Part shown: piece by piece, positions 9,608 through 23,653 of the stretch
Position numbering within the stretch: the first letter of the stretch is position 1
Layout of the letters: every line of letters starts with the position of its first letter
Source of the DNA: Heterodontus francisci
Lineage: Eukaryota
Direction of reading: 5' to 3'
Length of the DNA stretch: 64,000 nucleotides
Assembly (NCBI RefSeq): GCF_036365525.1
Contig: NC_090395.1
Span: 58,417,805-58,481,804, forward strand
The notes under the pieces: generated by a model
The model's database searches: none
What the model was told of the DNA's origin: nothing
The model's input: the letters and a program-made list of their open reading frames with translations, nothing else
Program-made: the position numbers and the translations under genes

Positions 9608-12600
9608 GGTAGAAACGTAGAAAAACAGGAGCAGGAGTAGGCCATTTGGCCCTTCGAGCCTGCTCCGCCATTCAATATGATCATGGCTGATCATCCAAAC
9701 TCAGTACCCTGTTCCCGCTTTCTCCCCGTATCCTTTGATCCCTTTAGTCCTAAGAACTATATCTAACTCTTTCTTGAATATATTTAATTATTTGGCCTCA
9801 ACTGCTTTCTGTGGTAGAGAATTCCACAGGTTCACCACTCTCTGGGTGAAGAAAGCTCTCCTCATCTCAGTCCTAAATGGTTTACCCCTTTATCCTTAGG
9901 CAGTGACCCCTAGTCCTGGAATCTCCTGCCACTGGGAACATCCTTCCTGCATCTAGTCTGTCAAGTCCTGTTAGAATTTTGTAGGTTTCTATGAGATCCC
10001 CTCTCATTCTTCTAAACTCTAGCGAATACAAGCCGAATCGACCCAATCTCTCTTCATACGTCAGTCCTGCCATCCCAGGAATCAGTCTGGTGAACCTTCG
10101 CTGCACTCCCTCCATAGCAAGAACATCCTTCCTCAGATAAGCAGACCAAAACTGCACACAATACTTGAGGTGTGGTCTCACCAAGGCCTTGCATAATTGC
10201 AGCAAGACATCCCTACTCCTGTACTCGAATCCTCTCACTATGAAGGCCATCATAAGATTTGTCGTCTTAACCACTTGCTGCACCTGTATGCTTACTTTCA
10301 GCGACTGGTGCACAAGGATACCCAGGTCTCGCTGCACATCCTCCTTCCTCAATCTATCGCCGTTCAGATAATCAGCTTTCCTGTTTTTGCCTCCAAAGTG
10401 GATAATCTCACATTTATCCACATTATACTGCATCTGCCATGTATTTGCCCACTCACTCAACCTGTCCAAATCACACTGGAGCTGCTCTGCATCCTCCTCA
10501 CAACTCCCACTCCCACCCAGCTTTGTGTTGTCTGCAAACCTGGATATATTACATTTAATTCCCTCATCAATATCATTAATATATGTTGTGAATAGCTGGG
10601 ATCCTAGCACTGATCCCTGCGGTACCCCATTAGTCACTGCCTGCCACTCGGAGAAAGACCCGTTTTTTCCGACTCTTTGTTTCCTGTCTGCCGACCAGTT
10701 CTGTATCCATGTCAGTACCTTACCCGCAATCCCATGTGCTTTAATTTTGCACGCTAATCTCTTATGTGGGACCTTATCGAAAGCCTTCTGAAAGTTCAAA
10801 TACACCACATCCACTGGTTCTCCCTTATCTATTCTACTAGTTACATCCTCAAAAAATTCTAGTAGATTTGTCAAGCATGATTTCCCTTTCGTAAATCCAT
10901 GTTGACTTTGTTTGATCCTGTCACTGTTTTCCAAGTGCTCTGCTATTGCATCTTTTATAATGGACTCTAGCATTTTCCCACTACTCATGTCAGGCTAACC
11001 GGCCTATAATTCCCTGTTTTCTCTCTACCTCCTTTTTTAAATAGTGGGGTTACATTAGCTACCTTCCAATCTGTTGGAACTGTTCCAGAGTCTATAGAAT
11101 TTTGAAAAATGACCAGCAATGCATCTACTATTTCTAGGGCCGCTTCCTTAAGTACTCTGGGATGTAGATTATCAGGCCCTGGGGATTTATTGACCTTCAA
11201 TCCCTACCACTACCGATTTCATACAGTTGCTCCTTCTCACTTGACCCTTGGTTAGCCAACATTTCTGGGAGGTAATTTGTGTCCTCCTTTGTGAAGATGG
11301 AACCAAAGTATGTATTTAATTGGTCTGCCATTTCTTTGTTCCCCGTTATAAATTCCACCATTTCTGACTGTAAGGGACCCACATTTGTCTTCACTAATCT
11401 TTTTCTCTTCACATATCTATAGAAGCTTTTACAGTCAGTTTTTATGTTCTCTGCAAGCTTACTCTCATACTCTATTTCCCCTTCTTAATCAATCCATTTG
11501 TCCTCCTTTGCTGAATTCTAAACTGCTCCCAATCCTCAGGTTTGCTGCTTGTTCTGGCTATTTTATATTTCTCCTCCTTGGATCTAATCTAATCCCTAAT
11601 TTATTTTGTAAGCCACAGTTGAGCCGCCCTTCCTATTTTATTTCTGCACCAGACAGGAATGAACAATTGTTGTAATTCATCCATGCGCTCTTTAAATGCT
11701 AGCCATTGCCTATCCGCTGTCAACCCTTTAAGTAACATTCCCCAATCTATCATAGCCAACTCGTGCCTCATACCTTCATAGTTTCCTTTATTTAGATTCA
11801 GGACCCTAGTCTCGGAATCAACTCTCACTCTCCATCTTAATGAAGAATTCTATCATGTTATGGTCGCTCTTTCCCCAAGGGACCCCGCACAACAAGATTG
11901 TTAACTAATCCTTTCTCATTACACAATACCCAGTCTAGGATGGCCAGTTCTCTAGTTGGTTCCTCAACGTATTGGTCCAAAAAACCATCGCGTACGCACT
12001 CTAAAAATCCTCCTCTACAGTATTATTGCTAATTTGGTTTGCCCAATCTATATGTAGATTAAACTCACCCATAATTACAGTTGTACACTTATTGCATGCA
12101 TCTCTAATTTCCTCCTCTACATCACCACTGCTGTTTGGGGGTCTATATACAACCCCCATCAATGTTTTCTGCCCCTTGGTGTTTCTTAGCTCCATCCATA
12201 CAGATTCCGCATCAGGATTCTCTGAGCTAATATCCTTCCTCCCTATTGTATTGATTTCTTCTTTTACTAACAATGCTACTCCACCTCCTTTCCCTTTTTG
12301 CCTGTCCATCCTAAACATTGAATACCCCTGGATGTTCAGTTCCCATCCTTGGTCACCCTGCAGCCATGTTTCCGTAATTGCAACTATATCCTATCCATTT
12401 ACGTCTATTTGCGTGGTTAATTCGCCGACCTTATTGCTGATACTGCGGGATTGAGACACAATGCCTTTAGGCTTGTCTTTTTAACATTCTTAGTCAACTT
12501 AGCATTAATTCGCACTATGGCCCTATTTGTTTCTTGCCCTTGATTTCTATGTCTTCCACTTTTGCCTTTTTGTTTCCTGTCTTTCGTTTCTATCCTTGTT

Positions 12601-14046
12601 TCCTCCTCTTCAGTCTCCCCGCTAAGGTTCCCATCCCCCTGCCATTCTAGTTTAAATCCTCCCCAACAGCACTAGCAAACACCCCTGTGAGGACATCGGT
12701 TACAGTCCTGCCTGGGTGTAACCCATCCTGCTTGTACAGGTCCCACCTTCCCCAGAACCGGTCCCGATATCCCAGGAATTGAAATCCCTCCCTCCTGCAC
12801 CATTTCTCTAGCCGCGCATTCATCTGGTCTATTCTCCTGTTCCTATACTCACTAACACGTGGCACAGGAAGTAATCCTGAGATTACTACCTTTTGAGGTT
12901 CTGCCTTTTAATTTCGGTCCTAACTCCTTAAATTCATCTTGCAGGACCTCATCCCTTTTTCTACCGATGTCGTTGGTACCAACATGTACCATGACCACTG
13001 GCTGTTCACCCTTCCCCTTCAGAATGTCCTGCAGCCGCTCTGAGACATCCTTGACCCTAGCACCAGGGAGGCAACATACCATCCTGGAGTCTCGTTTGCT
13101 GCCAAAGAAACGCTTGTCTGTTACCCTTACAATTGAATCTCCTATCACAATGGCTCTCCCAGTCTTTTTCCTCCTTTCCTGTGCAGCAGAGCCATCCGTG
13201 GTGCCATGAACTTAGCTGTTGTTGCTTTCCCTTGGGAGGCCATTCCCCCCCCCCCCCAAAAGTACTCAAGGTGATATATCTGTTTGTTTGAGAGGGGGAT
13301 GGCCACAGGGGACTCCTGCACTACCTGCCTGCGCCTACTGCTCCGCCTGGTAGTCACTTATCCCTTTTCTGCCCGTGCAGCCATTACTTGCAGTGTGACC
13401 ACCTCGCTAAATATGTTATCCATGACCTCCTCGGCATCGTGGATGCTCCACAGTGAATCCATCCGCAGCTCCAGCTGCGCAATGCGGTCAGCCAGTAGCT
13501 GCAGCTGGACACACTTCCTACACTTATGGTCGCCAGGGACACTGAAAGTGTCCCTGATTTCCCACATAGCACAGGAAGAGCATGCCACGGGGCTGAGCTC
13601 TCCTACCATGACTTACCTTTAGATTAAGCTCCTTAGTTACTCCCTTTAATTTGGAGTACTAATTACTCTAGGGACCTTATTCCACTCCAAACACGACCTA
13701 CTACAATCTAAAGTTCCTACCTTTACTTTTACTTCAGCTACTGAAAGTAGTAAAAAAAAAAGTAGAAATACCCACCTGTTCCTACTTAGCAATCAGCTGC
13801 CTCCCCTTGCAGCATGTCACTTTCTCAACTGTGACGTCAATCGTGGAACTCTCTTGCTGTCCCTGTGAGAGTATGCCTCTTTTAAGCCGCTGGAACTCCC
13901 GCTCACTGGTGCCTGTCCCCTGGTAGGTCCGCCTTGATCTCAGTCTTTCCCACCACCACTGCTCTTTTGAACTGTGCCGGTCTCACTTAGTCTTGCTCCT
14001 TCCCACTGCTGCTGCTCTTTTAAACTGTGCCGGTCTCGCTCAGTCT
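9608..14046 (-). mobile_element. Near full-length CR1 LINE (5'UTR, ORF1 zinc finger/coiled coil + SGNH esterase, ORF2 APE endonuclease + RT), frameshifted
   Basis: ORF1: CSSC...CRKC then a Leu-rich helix (13358-13609); GDSIVR/GAR/HVGTND (12852-13148); DGLHP (12647-12865). ORF2: GGGVALLVK...VYRPP...GEFN (12001-12318); RT FQKAFDKVPH, GVPQGSVLG, FADN (9882-10988); CR1 3' tail. Confidence 0.95.
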
Positions 14047-15627: not shown

Positions 15628-18320
15628 TTTTTTTAAAAATATTTGTTCATAGGATGTGGATGTTGTTGGAAAGGCCAGCATTATTGGTTATCCCTAATTG
15701 GCCCTGAGAAGGTGCTGCTGAGGCACCTTCTTGAACCGTTGCAGTCACGTGTGGGTACACCCATGGTGCTGTTAGGTAGGGAGTTCCAGAATTGTGACCC
15801 AGTGACAATAAAGAAATGATATATTTCCAAGTCAGGATGGTGTGTGACTTGGAGGTAACGTGCACCTTGGAGGTAACGTGCATGTGGTGGAGTTCCCATG
15901 TGTCTGCTGCCCTTGTTCTAGGTGAATTGTTGCAGTACATCTTGTAGATGGTACACACTGCTGCCTGTATGTGTCTGTGGTGGAGGGAGTGAATGTTTAA
16001 GGTGGTGGATGGGGTATCAATCAAGTGAGCTGCTTTGTCCTGGATGGTGTTGCGCTTCTTGAGTGTTGTTGGAGCTGTACCCATCCAGGGAAATGAGTTG
16101 TATTCCATCACATGTGAGTCAGGAGGTGTGTGACTTGCTGCAGAATTAGAATAGAATCATTGAATAGAATGGTTACAACACAGAATAGGCCATTCAGCCC
16201 CTCCAGTCTGTGCCAGCTCTCTGCAAGAGCAACTCAGCTAGTCCCACTCCCCTATCCTTTTCCCGGTAGACCTGAAAATGTTTTTTCTTCAGATAATTAA
16301 CCAATTCCTTTTTCAAAGCTATGATTGAATCTACCTCCACCACATTCTCAGGCAGTGCATTCCCGATCCTAGCCACACCCTGTGTTTTTTTTAAAAAAAA
16401 GTTTTTCCTCATGTTGCTCCTGTTTATTTACTGTTCACCTGAAATCAGTGTCCCCTGGTTTTCTACCCTTCCGTCAATGGGGACAGTTTCTCCCTATCTA
16501 CTCTGTTCAGACTCCATGATTTTGAATACCGCTATCAAATCTCCTCTCAACCTTCTCTTCTCTGAGGAGAACAGCCCCAGCTTCTCCAATTTATCCATGT
16601 AGCTTTAGACCCTCGTCCCTGGAACCATTCTCACAAACCTTTTTCCCCCCCCAGACTCTGACCTGCTCTTGTTGCTACAGAATTTATATGGCTGGTTAAG
16701 ATCCTGGTTAAGGTTAACCCCCAGAATGCTGATGCTGGGGGAATTCATCGATGGTAATGCCTTTGAATGTCAAGGAGAGATGATTATATTCTCTTTTGTT
16801 AGAGATGGTCATTGCATGACCACTCGTGTGGCACAAAGTTACTTGTCACCGAATGTTGTCCAGGTCTGACTGCAAGCGGGCATGAGCTGCTTCATTATCT
16901 GAAGAGCTGTAAATGGAACTGAACACTCTGCAATCATCAATGAACATCCCCATTTCGAACCTTATGATGGAGCGTTAGTCATTGAAGCAGCTGAAGATTG
17001 TTGGGCCTAGGACACTACCGTGAGGAACTCCTACAGCGATGTCCTGCGACTGAGCTGGTTGGTTTCCAAAAACCACAACCATCTTCCTTTCTACTAGGTA
17101 TGACTCCAACCAGTGGAGAGTTTTCCCCCTTGATTCCCACTGACTTCAGTTTTACTCAGGCTTTTTGATGCCAAGTTTGGTCAAATGCTGCCTTGATGTC
17201 AAGGGCACTCACTTTCACCTCCACCTCTGGAATTCAGCTGTTTTCTCCATGTTTGACTGTAATGAGGGCTGGAGTTGAGTGGTCTTGGCACAACTCAAAC
17301 TGAACAGGTTATTGGTGAGTCATGCTTGGTAGCATTGCCAATGACACCTTCCATCATTTTGTTGATGATTGACAGTAGACTGAGAAGTGATTGGCCAGAT
17401 TGGATTTGCCCTGCTTTTTGTGAACTGGAGATATTGGGGAAATTTTCCACTTTGTCAGGTAGATGCCAGTGTTATAGCTGTACTGGAACAGGTCGTTCTG
17501 AAGCACAAATCTTGAGCTGCACAGCTGGGGTGTTGTCTGGGCCCACAGCCTTTGCTGTATTCAGTGTGCTCGGCTGTTTCTTGTTATCTCATGGAGTAAA
17601 TCGAATTGGCCGAAGACTGGCAACTGTGATCCGCTCAGCACTTCAGGCTGAAGAAGGCTGCAAACGCTGAAGCCTTGTCTTTTGCATTTGTGGTGGGCTC
17701 CCCCATTATTGAGGATGGGGATATTTTTGGAGCCTCCTCCTCCCATTGTTTAATTGTCCACCACTGTTCTCAACTGGATGTGGCAGGACTTCAGAGCTTT
17801 GACCTGATCCATTGGTTGTGGGATCAAATGGCTTAGAGAGTAGCATGCTGCTTTGGCTGTTTAATATCCTGTGTTGTAACTTCAACAGATCGGCAATTCA
17901 ATTTTAGATATGCTTAACCCGCCTCCTGTCATGCTGTCCTACACTCCTCATTGAACCAGAGTTTGTCCCCTAGCTTGATAGTAATGGTAGAGTGAGCGGT
18001 CATGAGGTTAAAGATTGTGGTGGATTACAATTCTGCTGCTGCTGATGGCCTATAACCTCTCATGGGTGCCTAGTTTGAGCTGCTTGCTCCGTTCTGAGTC
18101 TATTGCATTTAGGATGGTGGTAGTGCCACGCAACACGATGGAAGGTGTCTTCTGTGAAGATGGAAGTTCATCTCTACAAGGACTATGTGGTAGTCACAAC
18201 TACCAATATTTTCATCAGTAGGTGCGTCTGCAAAAGATTACGGTCAAGTAGGTTTTTCCCTTGCTTTATTTCCCTTACAGTTGCAGACCCAGTCTAGCAG
18301 CTATGTCCTTTAGGACTTGC
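15628..18320 (-). mobile_element. Older, decayed copy of the tRNA-headed EN+RT LINE family (interrupted by CR1 at 16147-16645)
   Basis: Colinear with 20384-22751; ORF 15647-16111 MEYNSFPWM...TIQDKAAHLI...HSLHHRH...CTIYKM. Confidence 0.85.
16147..16645 (-). mobile_element. CR1 3' fragment
   Basis: tagaatagaatcattgaatagaat tail; ORF MRKNFF...NALPENVVEVDSIIALKKEL, the CR1 ORF2 C-terminus. Confidence 0.85.
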
Positions 18321-18321
18321 A

Positions 18322-19978
18322 GCTTTTTTTTATTTGTTTGTGGGATGTGGGTGTTGACGGCTAGAGCAAGATTTATTGCCCATCCCTAGTTGCCCTTGAG
18401 AAGGTGGCAATGAGCTGCCACCTTGAACCGCTGCAGTCCTTGGGTGAGGGTTTGTTGGGAAGGGAGTTTCAAGAATTTGGCCCAGGGACAGTGAAGGAAT
18501 GGCGATATAGTTCCAAGTCAGGATGGTGTGTGGCTTGGAGGTGAACTTGCAGGTGGTGGTGTTCCCATGCATCTGCTTCCCTTGTCCTTCTAGTTGGTAG
18601 AGGTCACGGGTTCAGACGGTACTGTCGAAGGAACCTTGGTGAGTTGCTGCAGTGCATCTTGTAGATGGTGCACACTGCTGCCACTGTGCTTTGGTGGTGA
18701 GGAGGGTGAATGTTTAAGATGGTGAACGGGATGCCAATCAAACAGGCTGCTTTGTCCTAGATGGTATTGAACTCCTCGAGTGTTGTTGGAGCTGCACCCA
18801 TCCAGGCAAATGGAAAGTATTCTATCACACTCCTGACTTGTGTCTTGTAGATGGTAGACAGGCACTGGGGAGACGGGAGGTAAGTTACCCGCCTCAGAAT
18901 TCCTAGTCTCTGACCTGTTCTTGTAACCCCAGCATTTATGTGGCTGGTTCAGTTTCTGGTAACTCCCATGATGTTGATAGTGGGGGATACAGTGATGGTA
19001 ATTCCATTGACTATCAAGGGGCGATGCTTAGATTCTCTCTTGCTTAAGATGTCATTGCCTGGCACTTGTGTGGTGCTTGTTACTTGCCACTTATCGACCC
19101 AAGCCTGTATGTTGCCCAGGTCTTGCTGCATCTGGACATGGGCTGCTTCAGTATCTGAGGAGTCGTGAATAGTGCTGAACATTGTGCAATCACCAGCGAA
19201 CATCCCCGCTTCTGACCTTATGATGGCTGGCAGGTCATTGAAGCAGCTGAAGATGGTTGTGCCTAGGACACTACCCTGAAGAACTCCTGCAGTGATGTCC
19301 TGGTATGATTGACCTCCAACAACCATAACCATCTTCTTTTGTGCTAGCTATGACTCCAACCAGCGGAAAGTTTTCTCCCTGATTCCCATTGACTCCTGTT
19401 TTGCTAGGGCTTCTTGATGCCAGACTCGGTCAGATGCTGATTTGATGTCAAGGGCAGTCACTCTCATCTCACCTCTGGAGTTCAGCAGTTTTGTCCATGT
19501 TTGGACCAAGGCTTTAATGAGGTCAGGAACTGAGTGGCCCTGGCAGAACCCAAACTGTCAGTGAACAGGTTATTGCTGAGCAAGCACTGCTTGATAGCAC
19601 TATCGACGACCCCTTCCATCACTTTGCTGATGATCGCAAGTAGACTGATAAGGTGGTAATTGGCTGGGTTGGATTTGTCCTGCTTTTTGTGGCCAGGACA
19701 TACCTAGGCAATTTTCTACATTGCCAGTTAGATGTCAGTGTTGTAATTGTACTGGAATAGCTTGGCTAGGGGTGTGGCTAGTTTTGGAGCACAAGTACTA
19801 TTGCTGGAATGTTTTCAGGGTCCATAGCCTTTGCAGTATCCAGTGCCTTCAGCCATTTCTTGATATCACGTGGCGTGAATCAGATTGGCTGAAGATTGGC
19901 ATCTGTGATGTTGGAGACCTCAGGAGGAGGCCGAGAAGGATCATCGAGGGATCCAATCGGCTCTTCTGGCTGAAGCAT
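18322..19978 (-). mobile_element. Second copy (RT half) of the tRNA-headed LINE family
   Basis: Colinear with 20384-22047; ITAGVLQGSVLGTTIFSCFNDL...MFAGD; possible TSD ttgcagc/ttgcatc. Confidence 0.85.
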
Positions 19979-19984
19979 TTGCAT

Positions 19985-20140
19985 CAGTCTGGTAGTTTTA
20001 TGGTCACCATTACTGATTCTTGCTTTTTGTTCGAGATTTATTTTATAATTGAATTTAAATTCCCCAGCTGCTTTGGTAGGATTTGAACTCGTGTCTCCAG
20101 ATTACTAGTCCAGTAACATAACAACTATGCTACCACCCCC
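19985..20140 (-). mobile_element. tRNA-derived 5' head of the same LINE family
   Basis: Minus: ggggtggtagcatagttgttatgttactggactagtaatctggagacacgagttcaaatcc; homologous to 23490-23650. Confidence 0.75.
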
Positions 20141-20204
20141 ATTGAACCAATGACCACCTGAATCAAAAGGAGAGAGTGCTACCACTGAGCCATGGTTGGC
20201 ACCT
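20141..20204 (-). mobile_element. tRNA head of the Deu-like SINE whose body is at 15410-15627
   Basis: gagagtgctaccactgagccatggttg matches 5623-5648. Confidence 0.65.
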
Positions 20205-20383
20205 GGGAAAAAGCTCAGATTAACTATAGTGCAACACCAAGAATAACGTACTAACAATTTTCAATCTGTTGCAGCCTGTGAGATTTCCAAAATAACCAAC
20301 TACTGGAACTAAATTTTATAGTCTAACTCTCACCAAATCCCATTCACGCATCAACCCTGTGTTAGCTGACCTACGCTGGCTCC

Positions 20384-23300
20384 TTATTTTTATTTAATTC
20401 ATTCGTGGGATGTGGGTGTCGCTGGCCAGGCCATCCCTAATTGCCCTTGGTGGTGGTGAGCTGCCTTCTTCAACCGCTGCTGTCCATTTGGGGTAGGTAT
20501 ACCCACAGTGCTGTTAGGGAGGGAGTTCCAGGATTTTGACCCAGCGACAGTGAAGGAACGGCGATATAGTTCCAAGTCAGGATGGTGTGTGACTTGGAGG
20601 GGAACTTGCAGGTGGTGGTGTTCCCAAGCATTTGCTGCCCTTGTCCTTCTAGTTGTTAGAGGTCACAGGTTTGGAAGGTGCTGTCTAAGGAGCCTTGGTA
20701 CATTGCTGCAGTGCATCTTGTAGATGGTACACACTGCTGCCACTGTGCATCGGTGGTGGAGGGAGTGAATGTTTGTAGATGGGGTGCCAGTCAAGCGTTC
20801 TGCTTTGTCCTGTATGGTGTCGAGCTTCTTGAGTGTTTTTGGAGCTGCATCCATCCAGGCAAGTGGAGAGTATTCCATAACACTCCTGACTTGTGCCTTG
20901 TAGATGGTGGACAAGCTTTGGGGAGTCAGGAGGTGAGTTACTCGCCTCAGGATTCCTAGCCTCTGACCTGCTCTTGTAGCCATGGTATTTATATGGCTAC
21001 TCCAGTTCTGTTTCTGGTCAATGGTAGCCCCTAGAATGTTGATAGTGGGGGATTCAGCGATGGTAATGCTGTTGAATGTCAAAGGGAGATGGTTAGATTC
21101 TCTCGTTGGCGATGGTCATTGCCTGGCACTTGTGTGGCGCGAATGTTACTGCCACTTATCAGCCCAAGCCTGGATATGGTCCAGGTCTTGCTGCATTTCT
21201 GCATGGACTGCTTCAGTATCTGAGGAGTCACGAGTGGTGCCGAACATTGTGTAATCATCAGTGAACATCACCACTTCTGACCTTATGATTGAAGGAAGGT
21301 CATTGATGAAGCAGTTGAAGACGGTTGGGCCTAAGACACTACCCTGAGGAACTCCTGCAGTGATGTCCCGGAGCTCAGATGATTGACCAACAACCACAAC
21401 CATCTTCCTTTGCGCTAGGTATGACTCCAGCCAGCGGAGGGTTTTCCCCCTGATTCCCAATGACCTCAGTTTTGCTAGGGCTCCTTGATGCCATACTTGG
21501 TCAAATGCTGCCTTGATGTCAAGGGCAGTCACTCTCACCTCACCTCTTGAGTTCAGCCCTTTTGTCCATGTTTGAACCAAGACTGTCCTGAGGTCAGGAG
21601 TTGAGTGGCCCTGGCAGAACTCAAACTAAGCGTCACTGAGCAGGTTATTTCTAAGCAAGTGGTTGATAGCATTGTTAGTGACACCTTCCATCAATTTACT
21701 GATCGAGGATCAAGAGTAGACTAATGGGGCGATAATTGGCTGGGTTGGAGTGTACTGCATTTTGAGTACAGGACATATCTGGACAATTTTGCACATTACA
21801 GGGTAGATGCTAGTGTTGTAGCTGTACTGGAACAGCTTGGCTAGGGGCGCGGCAAGTTCTGGAGCCCAGGTCTTCAGTACTATTGCCGGAATATTGTCAG
21901 GGTCCGTAGCTTTTGCAGTATCCAGTGCCTTCAGTCGTTTCTTGATATCACGCGGAGTGAATCGAATTGGCTGAAGTCTGGCATCTGTGATGCTGGGGAC
22001 TTCAGGAGGAGGCCGAGATGGATCATCAGCTCAGCACTTCTGGCTGAAGATTGTTGCAATGCTTCAGCCTTATCTTTCGCACTGATGTGCTGGGCTCCCC
22101 CATCATTGAGGATGGGGATATTTGTGGAGCCACCTCCTCCAGTTAGTTGTTTAAATGTCCACCACCATTCACGGCTGGATGTGGCAGGACTGCAGAGCTT
22201 AGATCTGATCCGATGGTTATGGGATCGCGTAGCTCTGTCTATTGCATGCTGATTATGCAGTTTGGTACGCAGATAGTCCTGTGTTGTAGCTTCACCAGGT
22301 TGACGCCTCATTTTGAGGTTTGCCTGGTGCTGCTCCTGGCATGCCCTCCTGCACTCTTCATTGAACCAGGGTTGGTCTCCTGGCTTGATGATAAGTGAAG
22401 AGTGGGGGATATGCTGGACCATGAGGTTACAGATTGTGGTTGAGTACAATTCTGCTGCTGCTGATGGCCCACAGCGCCTCATGGATGCCCAGTTTTGCAT
22501 TGCTAGATCTGTTCGAAATCTATCCCATTTAGCACGGTGGTAGTGCCACACAACACGATGGAGGGTGTCCTCAATGAGAAGGCGGGACTTTGTCTCCACA
22601 ATGTGCAGCGGTCACTCCTACCAATACTGTCATGGACAGATGCATCTGCGGCAGGCAGATTGGTGAGGACGAGGTCAAGTATGTTTTCCCCTCTTGTTGG
22701 TTCCCTCACCACCTGCCGCATACCCAGTCTAGCAGATATGTCCTTTAGGACTCAGCCAGCTTGGTCAGTAGTGGTGCTACCGAGCCACTCTTGGTGATGG
22801 ACATTGAAGTCCCCCACCCAGAGTACATTTTGTGCCCTCGCCACCCTCAGTGCTTCCTCCAAGTGCTGTTCAACATGGAGGAGTACTGACTCATCAGCTG
22901 AGGGAGGGCGGTAGATGGTAATCAGCAGGAGGTTTCCTTGTCCATGTTTGATCTGATGCCATGACACTTCATGGGGTCTGGTGTTGATGTTGAGGACTCC
23001 CAGGGCAACTCCCTCCCTACTGCATACCACTGTGCCACCACTTCTGGTGGGTCTGTCCTGCCGGTGGGACAGGACATACCCAGGGATGGTGATGGCAGTG
23101 TCTGGGACATTGTAAGGTATGATTCCGTGAGTATGACTATGTCAGGCTGTTGCTTGACTAATCTGTGGGACAGCTCTCCCAACTTTGGCACAAGCCCCCA
23201 GATGTTAGTAAGGAGGACTTTGCAGGGTCGACAGGGCTGCATTTACCGTTGTCGTTTCCGGTGCCTAGGTCGATGCCGGGTGGTCCGTCCGGTTTCATTC

Positions 23301-23650
23301 CTTTTTATTGACTTCGTAGCAGTTAGATACAACTGAGTGGCTTGCTCGGCCATTTCAGAGGGCATGTAAGAGTCAACCACATTGCTGTGGGTCTGGAGTC
23401 ACATGTAGGCCAGACCAGGTAAGGACAGCAGATTTCCTTCCCTAAAGGGCATTAGTGAACCAGATGGGTTTTTACAACAATCAACAATTGTTTCATGGCC
23501 ATCATTAGAATAGCTTTTAATTCCAGATTTATTAATTGAATTCAAATACCGCCTTCTGCTGTGGTGGAATTTGAACGCATGTCACCAGAGCAATACCCTG
23601 GGTCTCTGGGTTACTAGTCCAGTGACAATACCACTACTCCACTGCCTCCC
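20384..23650 (-). mobile_element. Full-length single-ORF non-LTR retrotransposon (CR1/Jockey-group APE endonuclease + RT) with a tRNA-derived 5' head; frameshifted
   Basis: EN: LLTNIWGL...PDIVILTESYL, IYRPP, WVGDFNVHH, NILDLVLTN. RT: ALDIKAAFDQVWH, GVPQGSVLGP, MFTDD. C-terminus YKAQVRSVMEY. 5' A box 23631-23641, B box 23566-23576; A-rich tail at 20384; no ORF1. Inserted into an L2 fragment (20320-20383 / 23654-24042). Confidence 0.9.
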
Positions 23651-23653
23651 CCC

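Follow-up and report, generated by a model that had tools for sequence, protein, structure and literature searches.

Introduction

SINEs and LINEs are divided into non-coding elements that RNA polymerase III (Pol III) transcribes and coding elements that RNA polymerase II (Pol II) transcribes, as set out in PMC10886601 and PMC5786205; the latter adds that SINEs cannot encode a protein. Several tRNA-headed SINEs of cartilaginous fish share their tails with LINEs, among them SacSINE1 and LmeSINE1 (Deu-SINEs, with L2-2_CM- or CR1-4_DR-like tails) and the shark pair HE1/HER1 (PMC5499810, PMC3747384). The partner LINEs of these SINEs are not described as carrying a head. RTE-1_DAn and related elements, LINEs reported to have a tRNA-like stretch that matches SINE2 heads, offer a partial precedent, but belong to the RTE clade (Repbase; PMC5786205); the literature searched held no further paper on this stretch. 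LF-SINE has been described as specific to lobe-finned fishes (PMC2315648), and PMC4255032 detected no 3′ similarity between the SINEs and LINEs that it examined.

Here we analyse a 64,000-nucleotide stretch of the Heterodontus francisci genome (the window; contig NC_090395.1, positions 58,417,805 to 58,481,804), which contains a LINE that begins with a tRNA-derived head and whose coding strand is depleted of T-runs. A literature search conducted outside Repbase, Dfam and most subscription papers found neither this family nor any coding LINE described as transcribed by Pol III. The LINE that we report, with a SINE-type head and a specific depletion of T-runs across the family, is real; if Pol III transcription is true as well, it would be a new kind of element.

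Results

Structure of the element in the window

The initial annotation described a minus-strand element of ∼3.25 kb with a single, frameshifted endonuclease-reverse transcriptase (RT) ORF and no ORF1. Our analysis bears this out. Pfam matches on the minus strand of the window copy include RVT_1 (E 1e-21) and Exo_endo_phos_2 (E 2e-7), and eight frameshifting indels separate it from the natural copy L141. No ORF1 was found in the window copy, which has no room for one between head and endonuclease. The A box, anticodon-like loop and B box that it had reported could all be located. The features are as follows.

20384-23652, minus strand: full-length but decayed member of the LINE family with a head and one ORF (subfamily A), from end-to-end alignment to other copies
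23566-23652, minus strand: head derived from tRNA-Ser(AGA) and bearing a long extra arm, from alignment to the genome's own tRNA-Ser genes (ARAGORN calls)
23631-23641, minus strand: A box, beginning 11 nt after the family 5′ end
23611-23620, minus strand: anticodon-like loop
23566-23577, minus strand: B box, degenerate in the window copy, in canonical or CpG-decayed form in most copies
23330-23565, minus strand: 5′ UTR or SINE body, common to the short SINE derivatives, with several upstream AUGs inside
23345-23365, minus strand: in-frame AUG pair, followed in the window copy by a sense codon
22530-23251, minus strand: basic N-terminal stretch and APE endonuclease domain (Pfam PF14529 and PF03372, natural frames, tblastn)
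21146-21980, minus strand: RT domain, upstream limit approximate (Pfam PF00078 on 21146-21625)
20384-20440, minus strand: short 3′ UTR with a hairpin-forming tail and A-rich end, also present in the SINE derivatives
19985-20142, minus strand: head and start of the body of the oldest head type, with a short A-B spacer
18322-19978, minus strand: 5′-truncated copy of the older subfamily B, 83% to locus L153, without sense TTTT
15640-18317, minus strand: oldest copy of the same LINE, 73-74% identical, interrupted

Over its whole length the window copy matches 24 of 39 retrieved copies at 90-92%, and it differs by 4.5% from the column-wise commonest letter. Its RT motif reads FTDD, against FADD in the natural open copies. 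Positions 15640-23652 hold three generations of the same LINE and an old head fragment, arranged head to tail on one strand. Several retrieved copies (L042, L044, L048) likewise adjoin or sit inside family members, which may reflect a landing preference or mere abundance. Just upstream of the old head fragment, at 20150-20200, lies a short fragment that resembles the published SacSINE1 head.

The head is a fixed part of an abundant family

The 6 Gb genome was searched with a query of head plus endonuclease, which gave 7949 first-look candidates; the 40 scored matches all span both parts, and 24 of the 39 loci retrieved are uninterrupted full-length copies. Because this query selects for the head, a separate search was run with endonuclease DNA alone. 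It could have shown that most full-length copies lack the head, but 18 of 29 loci extend to nt 1-26, the other 11 being truncated further in. When ORF-selected loci were pooled (75, including two duplicates and excluding loci that start past nt 520), 45 started at or before nt 26, 34 of these at nt 1-3. Starts of the other 30 are dispersed over nt 38-426, with just three short matches among their upstream sequences, and no alternative 5′ end was found among the 75. Conversely, of 29 loci selected with the head only, 19 continue into the ORF, eight are short SINEs and two are broken copies.

The junction between head and ORF is identical in all copies compared, as had been proposed for a head that is part of the element. 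The accompanying test, whether this junction lies within target-site duplications, is inapplicable: among 41 copies there are a few duplications of 8-12 bp and most copies have none beyond chance. Copies are dispersed, show 5′ truncations and have A-rich 3′ ends. As judged from these alignments, the head belongs to the LINE family as a fixed part and is no chance SINE neighbour.

Some loci are unusual in other respects. About seven of 24 full copies (e.g. L031, L039, L044, L057) have a run of 4-6 T just before the A-tail, which may be post-insertion slippage or what is left of a Pol III termination event and subsequent polyadenylation. At L140:1310-4528 a 5′-truncated copy lies in frame within a CR1 endonuclease, giving a chance fusion of 1073 aa with two endonuclease domains. 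L168-L176 are near-identical truncated copies on several unplaced contigs and probably belong to a large repeat, either tandem or segmental.

Origin of the head and of the short SINEs

Across the A box, anticodon loop and B box, the head can be aligned to the tRNA-Ser(AGA) genes of the same genome. This alignment excludes tRNA-Thr as its source, the origin that had been suggested from an AGT anticodon. The 5′ end of the family coincides with the tRNA +1 position, 11 nt ahead of the A box. The head is no longer a folded tRNA: neither ARAGORN nor Rfam called it as one, and in folding it performed no better than shuffles, with no cloverleaf and no canonical acceptor stem. Since the A and B boxes are kept but the cloverleaf is lost, a promoter function rather than one of tRNA shape is indicated.

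Heads of two older subfamilies are joined to the ORF as well. Of the 34 loci chosen by a search with RT-region DNA from the older neighbour, six or more are subfamily-B copies (83-87% to L153) in which a variant head continues without a break into the ORF. In a third type, found also at 19985-20142 of the window, the spacer is ∼20 nt shorter; of 15 loci retrieved from its 40 matches, three run into the endonuclease at 72-75% identity and ∼10 are SINEs. Across the three ORF-joined types the A and B boxes persist and the spacer varies from about 32 to 52 nt.

Every head type occurs in both LINE and SINE form. The short SINEs (390-470 nt) consist of head and body joined to the LINE tail at no fewer than four different junctions, and they are ∼95% identical to the 5′ part of the LINE. 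By this comparison, they are internal deletions of the head-bearing LINE layout. At L203:1491-1569, ARAGORN calls the head of a SINE of the same superfamily as tRNA-Ser(AGA), and heads called in this way could inflate tRNA annotations. A tandem array at positions 12636732-12762172 of contig C34 (genome G000) contains ∼50 tRNA-Ser(AGA)-type pattern matches at ∼2.15-kb spacing.

Coding capacity, age and translation start

Frames of 942 and 916 aa that contain no stop and carry the endonuclease catalytic motifs and FADD survive in natural copies. In an alignment of 42 copies there is no stop among the commonest codons. Non-CpG variants common to at least four of the 42 comprise 45 synonymous and 30 nonsynonymous changes and no stops (pN/pS 0.21), compared with a pN/pS of 0.85 for private variants in the same copies. 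Between the commonest codons of subfamilies A and B there are 73 synonymous and 50 nonsynonymous changes, and one majority stop in B. The codon statistics show purifying selection on the ORF of the head-bearing copies, and the long natural frames together with the low pN/pS of shared variants demonstrate autonomy.

Copies diverge from the column majority by 2.3-4.6% in subfamily A and 6-9% in subfamily B; the bursts are therefore old, and copy divergence gives no sign of current activity. In a tree with unnamed relatives the RT branches apart from the CR1 elements of this genome. The nearest proteins, from 3.3-4.3 kb contigs and from amphioxus, are 36-41% identical. Pieces of the ORF also occur, at 70-86% identity, inside annotated shark and ray protein models (P0001, P0002, P0006, P0012, P0019, P0020), which are probably exonised or mis-annotated copies.

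The 5′ region is crowded with start codons, with 11 AUGs in the first 420 nt. Behind the only in-frame AUG pair, 26 of the 38 copies that can be read have a stop, which leaves them without an in-frame AUG for the ORF, and the remaining 12 have a sense codon. The sense variants are dispersed on the copy tree, which excludes a single derived clade. After the AUG pair the frame opens with a basic stretch resembling the N-termini of relatives. An out-of-frame AUG just before the endonuclease, which together with a frameshift would be a further candidate start, is kept in subfamilies A and B and is not evident in the three oldest copies. Four contig sets out of 24, whose RNA type is a guess and which carry no information on start, strand, level or polymerase, cover the element in four organisms. 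Their depth climbs toward the 3′ end and peaks on the SINE body, a pattern that fits truncated copies in host transcripts, or DNA.

T-runs on the coding strand

The initial annotation had reported that the sense strand of 20384-23650 lacks TTTT and that AAAA runs are common, and the counts are 0 and 16, respectively (A4+ and T4+ runs on the plus strand). Its two comparisons also hold, with no sense TTTT in the copy at 18322-19978 and eight runs in the neighbouring CR1 (9608-14046). Given base composition, 5.1 TTTT would be expected in the element (P 0.003). Against dinucleotide shuffles the absence has a P of 0.16, and against synonymous-codon shuffles a P of 0.06-0.6; both nulls err on the conservative side, since the codon choice of the element itself is preserved in them. 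The zero count is therefore no sole proof, and the comparison with codon-shuffled sequences that had been proposed gave a divided answer: the absence of TTTT is not significant by itself, yet off-codon T3+ runs (at least three T, other than a lone Phe codon) are strongly depleted. Eight natural frames contain 0-2 of these runs against 8-10.5 expected, a result to be counted as one test and not eight since the copies share ancestry. Stratification for CpG in five frames (0-2 seen, 5.8-7.4 expected, P <0.001-0.04) weakens the depletion but does not abolish it, which rejects CpG decay as its cause.

Codon choice points in the same direction. Among the dinucleotides of L141, only CG is more depleted than TT. 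Codons of the form xT? end in T in 1 of 25 cases ahead of a T-starting codon against 24 of 137 elsewhere, and NNY codons in 0 of 9 cases before TT against 75 of 242 elsewhere. A-runs show no avoidance. TTTT common to at least three of the 42 subfamily-A copies is confined to the A-tail boundary; in subfamily B it is found in 7 of 20 copies, at one CpG-decay site. Phe makes up 2.0% of the protein, a lower value occurring in just 1 of 114 homologues, and 16 of 19 Phe fall at columns conserved in relatives. Very low Phe contents are likewise seen in two close invertebrate-type relatives, P0025 (1.5%) and P0021 (2.3%).

As controls we used 66 LINE ORFs, presumed to be Pol II-transcribed, namely the 64 of 80 metagenome loci with a frame of at least 450 aa and two CR1. 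Their T-run ratios are 0.59-1.42, none is free of TTTT (0/66) and none has A and B boxes (0/66), in a set with one DNA control (L208) from the close RT clade and many members from T-richer hosts. Nine young CR1 frames of the same genome contain 6-13 TTTT, at expectation; eight short older CR1 frames are at or near expectation, two of them with low counts. Searches of the genome for a divergent, head-less sister LINE returned mostly the same family, and in the loci retrieved the other long-frame LINEs were CR1 only. The avoidance of T-runs is real and is absent from the control LINEs.

The canonical Pol III terminators of vertebrates do not include TTT, although weak non-canonical terminators exist. 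The link from T-run avoidance to Pol III would thus be made through these weak terminators and through the benefit of staying one mutation away from TTTT.

Discussion

The combination of a fixed head with A and B boxes and a coding strand purged of T-runs suggests that the 3.3-kb RNA is likely to be made by Pol III. The best reading, and in our judgement a reasonably probable one, is an autonomous single-ORF LINE that would be transcribed by Pol III from its tRNA-Ser-derived head and translated in a non-canonical manner. TFIIIC and Pol III would start at the first base of the head and continue across the ORF into the A-tail, and Pol III would halt at the first genomic T-run downstream. Translation of this uncapped RNA would begin at a non-AUG codon or proceed by readthrough of the short upstream frame. 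The protein may then bind the hairpin tail at the 3′ end in cis and insert the element by target-primed reverse transcription, and it may also mobilise in trans the SINE derivatives, which would arise by deletion of the ORF with head and tail kept. RNA polymerase III is not known to make protein-coding RNAs of this kind. Pol III transcripts have been reported to be translatable, and human L1 was long ago said to depend on Pol III.

The original proposal of a SINE-LINE hybrid selected against Pol III terminators therefore survives in its fixed head, in the purifying selection on its ORF and in the avoidance of T-runs; the zero count of TTTT, taken alone, was its weak part. A broader claim, towards which we lean only slightly, is that this would be a long-lived, Pol III-transcribed and cap-free coding lineage whose 2.9-kb ORF has been rewritten, Phe residues included, against termination, and which repeatedly spawns SINE families.

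Among the alternatives, the one we take most seriously, while considering it unlikely, is that the captured SINE 5′ part now serves as a Pol II internal promoter or has one within it. In that case the RNA would be capped, the boxes would mainly serve the SINEs, and T-runs would be avoided for another reason, such as RT slippage or U-rich signals for splicing, decay or cleavage. An internal promoter used by Pol II would equally be expected to give a fixed 5′ end, LINEs are regarded as Pol II transcripts (PMC10886601 and PMC5786205), and recombination with abundant SINEs could homogenise the heads; this explanation also gains from the non-significance of TTTT absence alone. It sits less easily with a 5′ end placed at tRNA +1, 11 nt before the A box, and with the preservation of the boxes through three head types on ORF-joined copies. 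Nor does it account well for 66 presumed Pol II controls without T-run depletion or for A-runs that are not avoided, and the 11 AUGs of the first 420 nt fit cap-dependent scanning badly.

We regard as quite improbable a second alternative, in which the element has no working promoter and is co-transcribed by host Pol II, the tRNA-like head being an RNase P-like processing signal that sets the 5′ end much as ribozymes do in R2, RTE and Ingi elements. Self-cleaving 5′ ends are indeed known in several LINE clades (PMC5786205), the coincidence with tRNA +1 would follow, and the RNA-type contig sets contain the element throughout. What has been conserved, however, is the boxes and not the fold, there being no cloverleaf or canonical acceptor stem, and the depletion of T-runs is left without explanation. 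Independent template-switch chimeras of SINE and LINE, or a long non-autonomous SINE whose ORF is dead and which a head-less master LINE mobilises, have precedents in chimeric retrocopies and tRNA-headed bipartite SINEs, both well known (PMC4494074 and PMC5786205), but are largely refuted and very improbable given the single junction in all copies, the lack of an alternative 5′ end among the ORF-selected loci and the purifying selection on the ORF of head-bearing copies.

Should transcription by Pol III from the head be true, the element would provide a natural 3.3-kb Pol III mRNA and a vertebrate test case for cap-independent translation. It would also reveal a direct route of SINE birth, with the ORF deleted and head and tail retained, and a source for a conserved SINE body, the origins of which are called 'enigmatic' in PMC5786205.

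Comparison with known elements

Like tRNA-derived SINEs (SINE2, including the bipartite Bov-tA and SINE2-1_ACar), the family has an A/B-box head, a body, a LINE-type tail and no internal TTTT (PMC4494074 and PMC5786205), and its derivatives of 390-470 nt, short and non-coding, fit the SINE2 class. Unlike SINE2, the parent is 3.3 kb long and carries a 2.9-kb endonuclease-RT ORF under purifying selection. In bipartite SINEs, as described in the same two papers, the head was added to an already deleted LINE, whereas here it sits on a full LINE. Compared by eye, the head and body described here do not match the partial SacSINE1 head or the Deu body of EbuSINE2 (PMC5786205 supplement), which argues against identity with SacSINE1 or Deu-SINEs.

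With CR1-group LINEs outside CR1 proper, the element shares an APE endonuclease and RT, 5′ truncations, little or no target-site duplication and a short hairpin tail; it differs from them in its tRNA head and T-run depletion, both absent from the 66 control ORFs. Membership of the CR1 clade proper (HER1-like) is excluded by an RT on a separate branch from the genome's CR1 and by the lack of ORF1. L2-, Crack-, Daphne- or Zenon-like members of the CR1 group outside CR1 proper are candidate relatives. The LF-SINE of coelacanth and tetrapods was reportedly found by Bejerano in 2006 to be Ser-tRNA-derived, and its body presumably resembles the oldest head type described here. In length, an LF-SINE insertion of 391 nt (PMC4255032) is similar to the short derivatives of about 390-470 nt. 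The head-bearing LINE is possibly the missing parent of LF-SINE-type elements.
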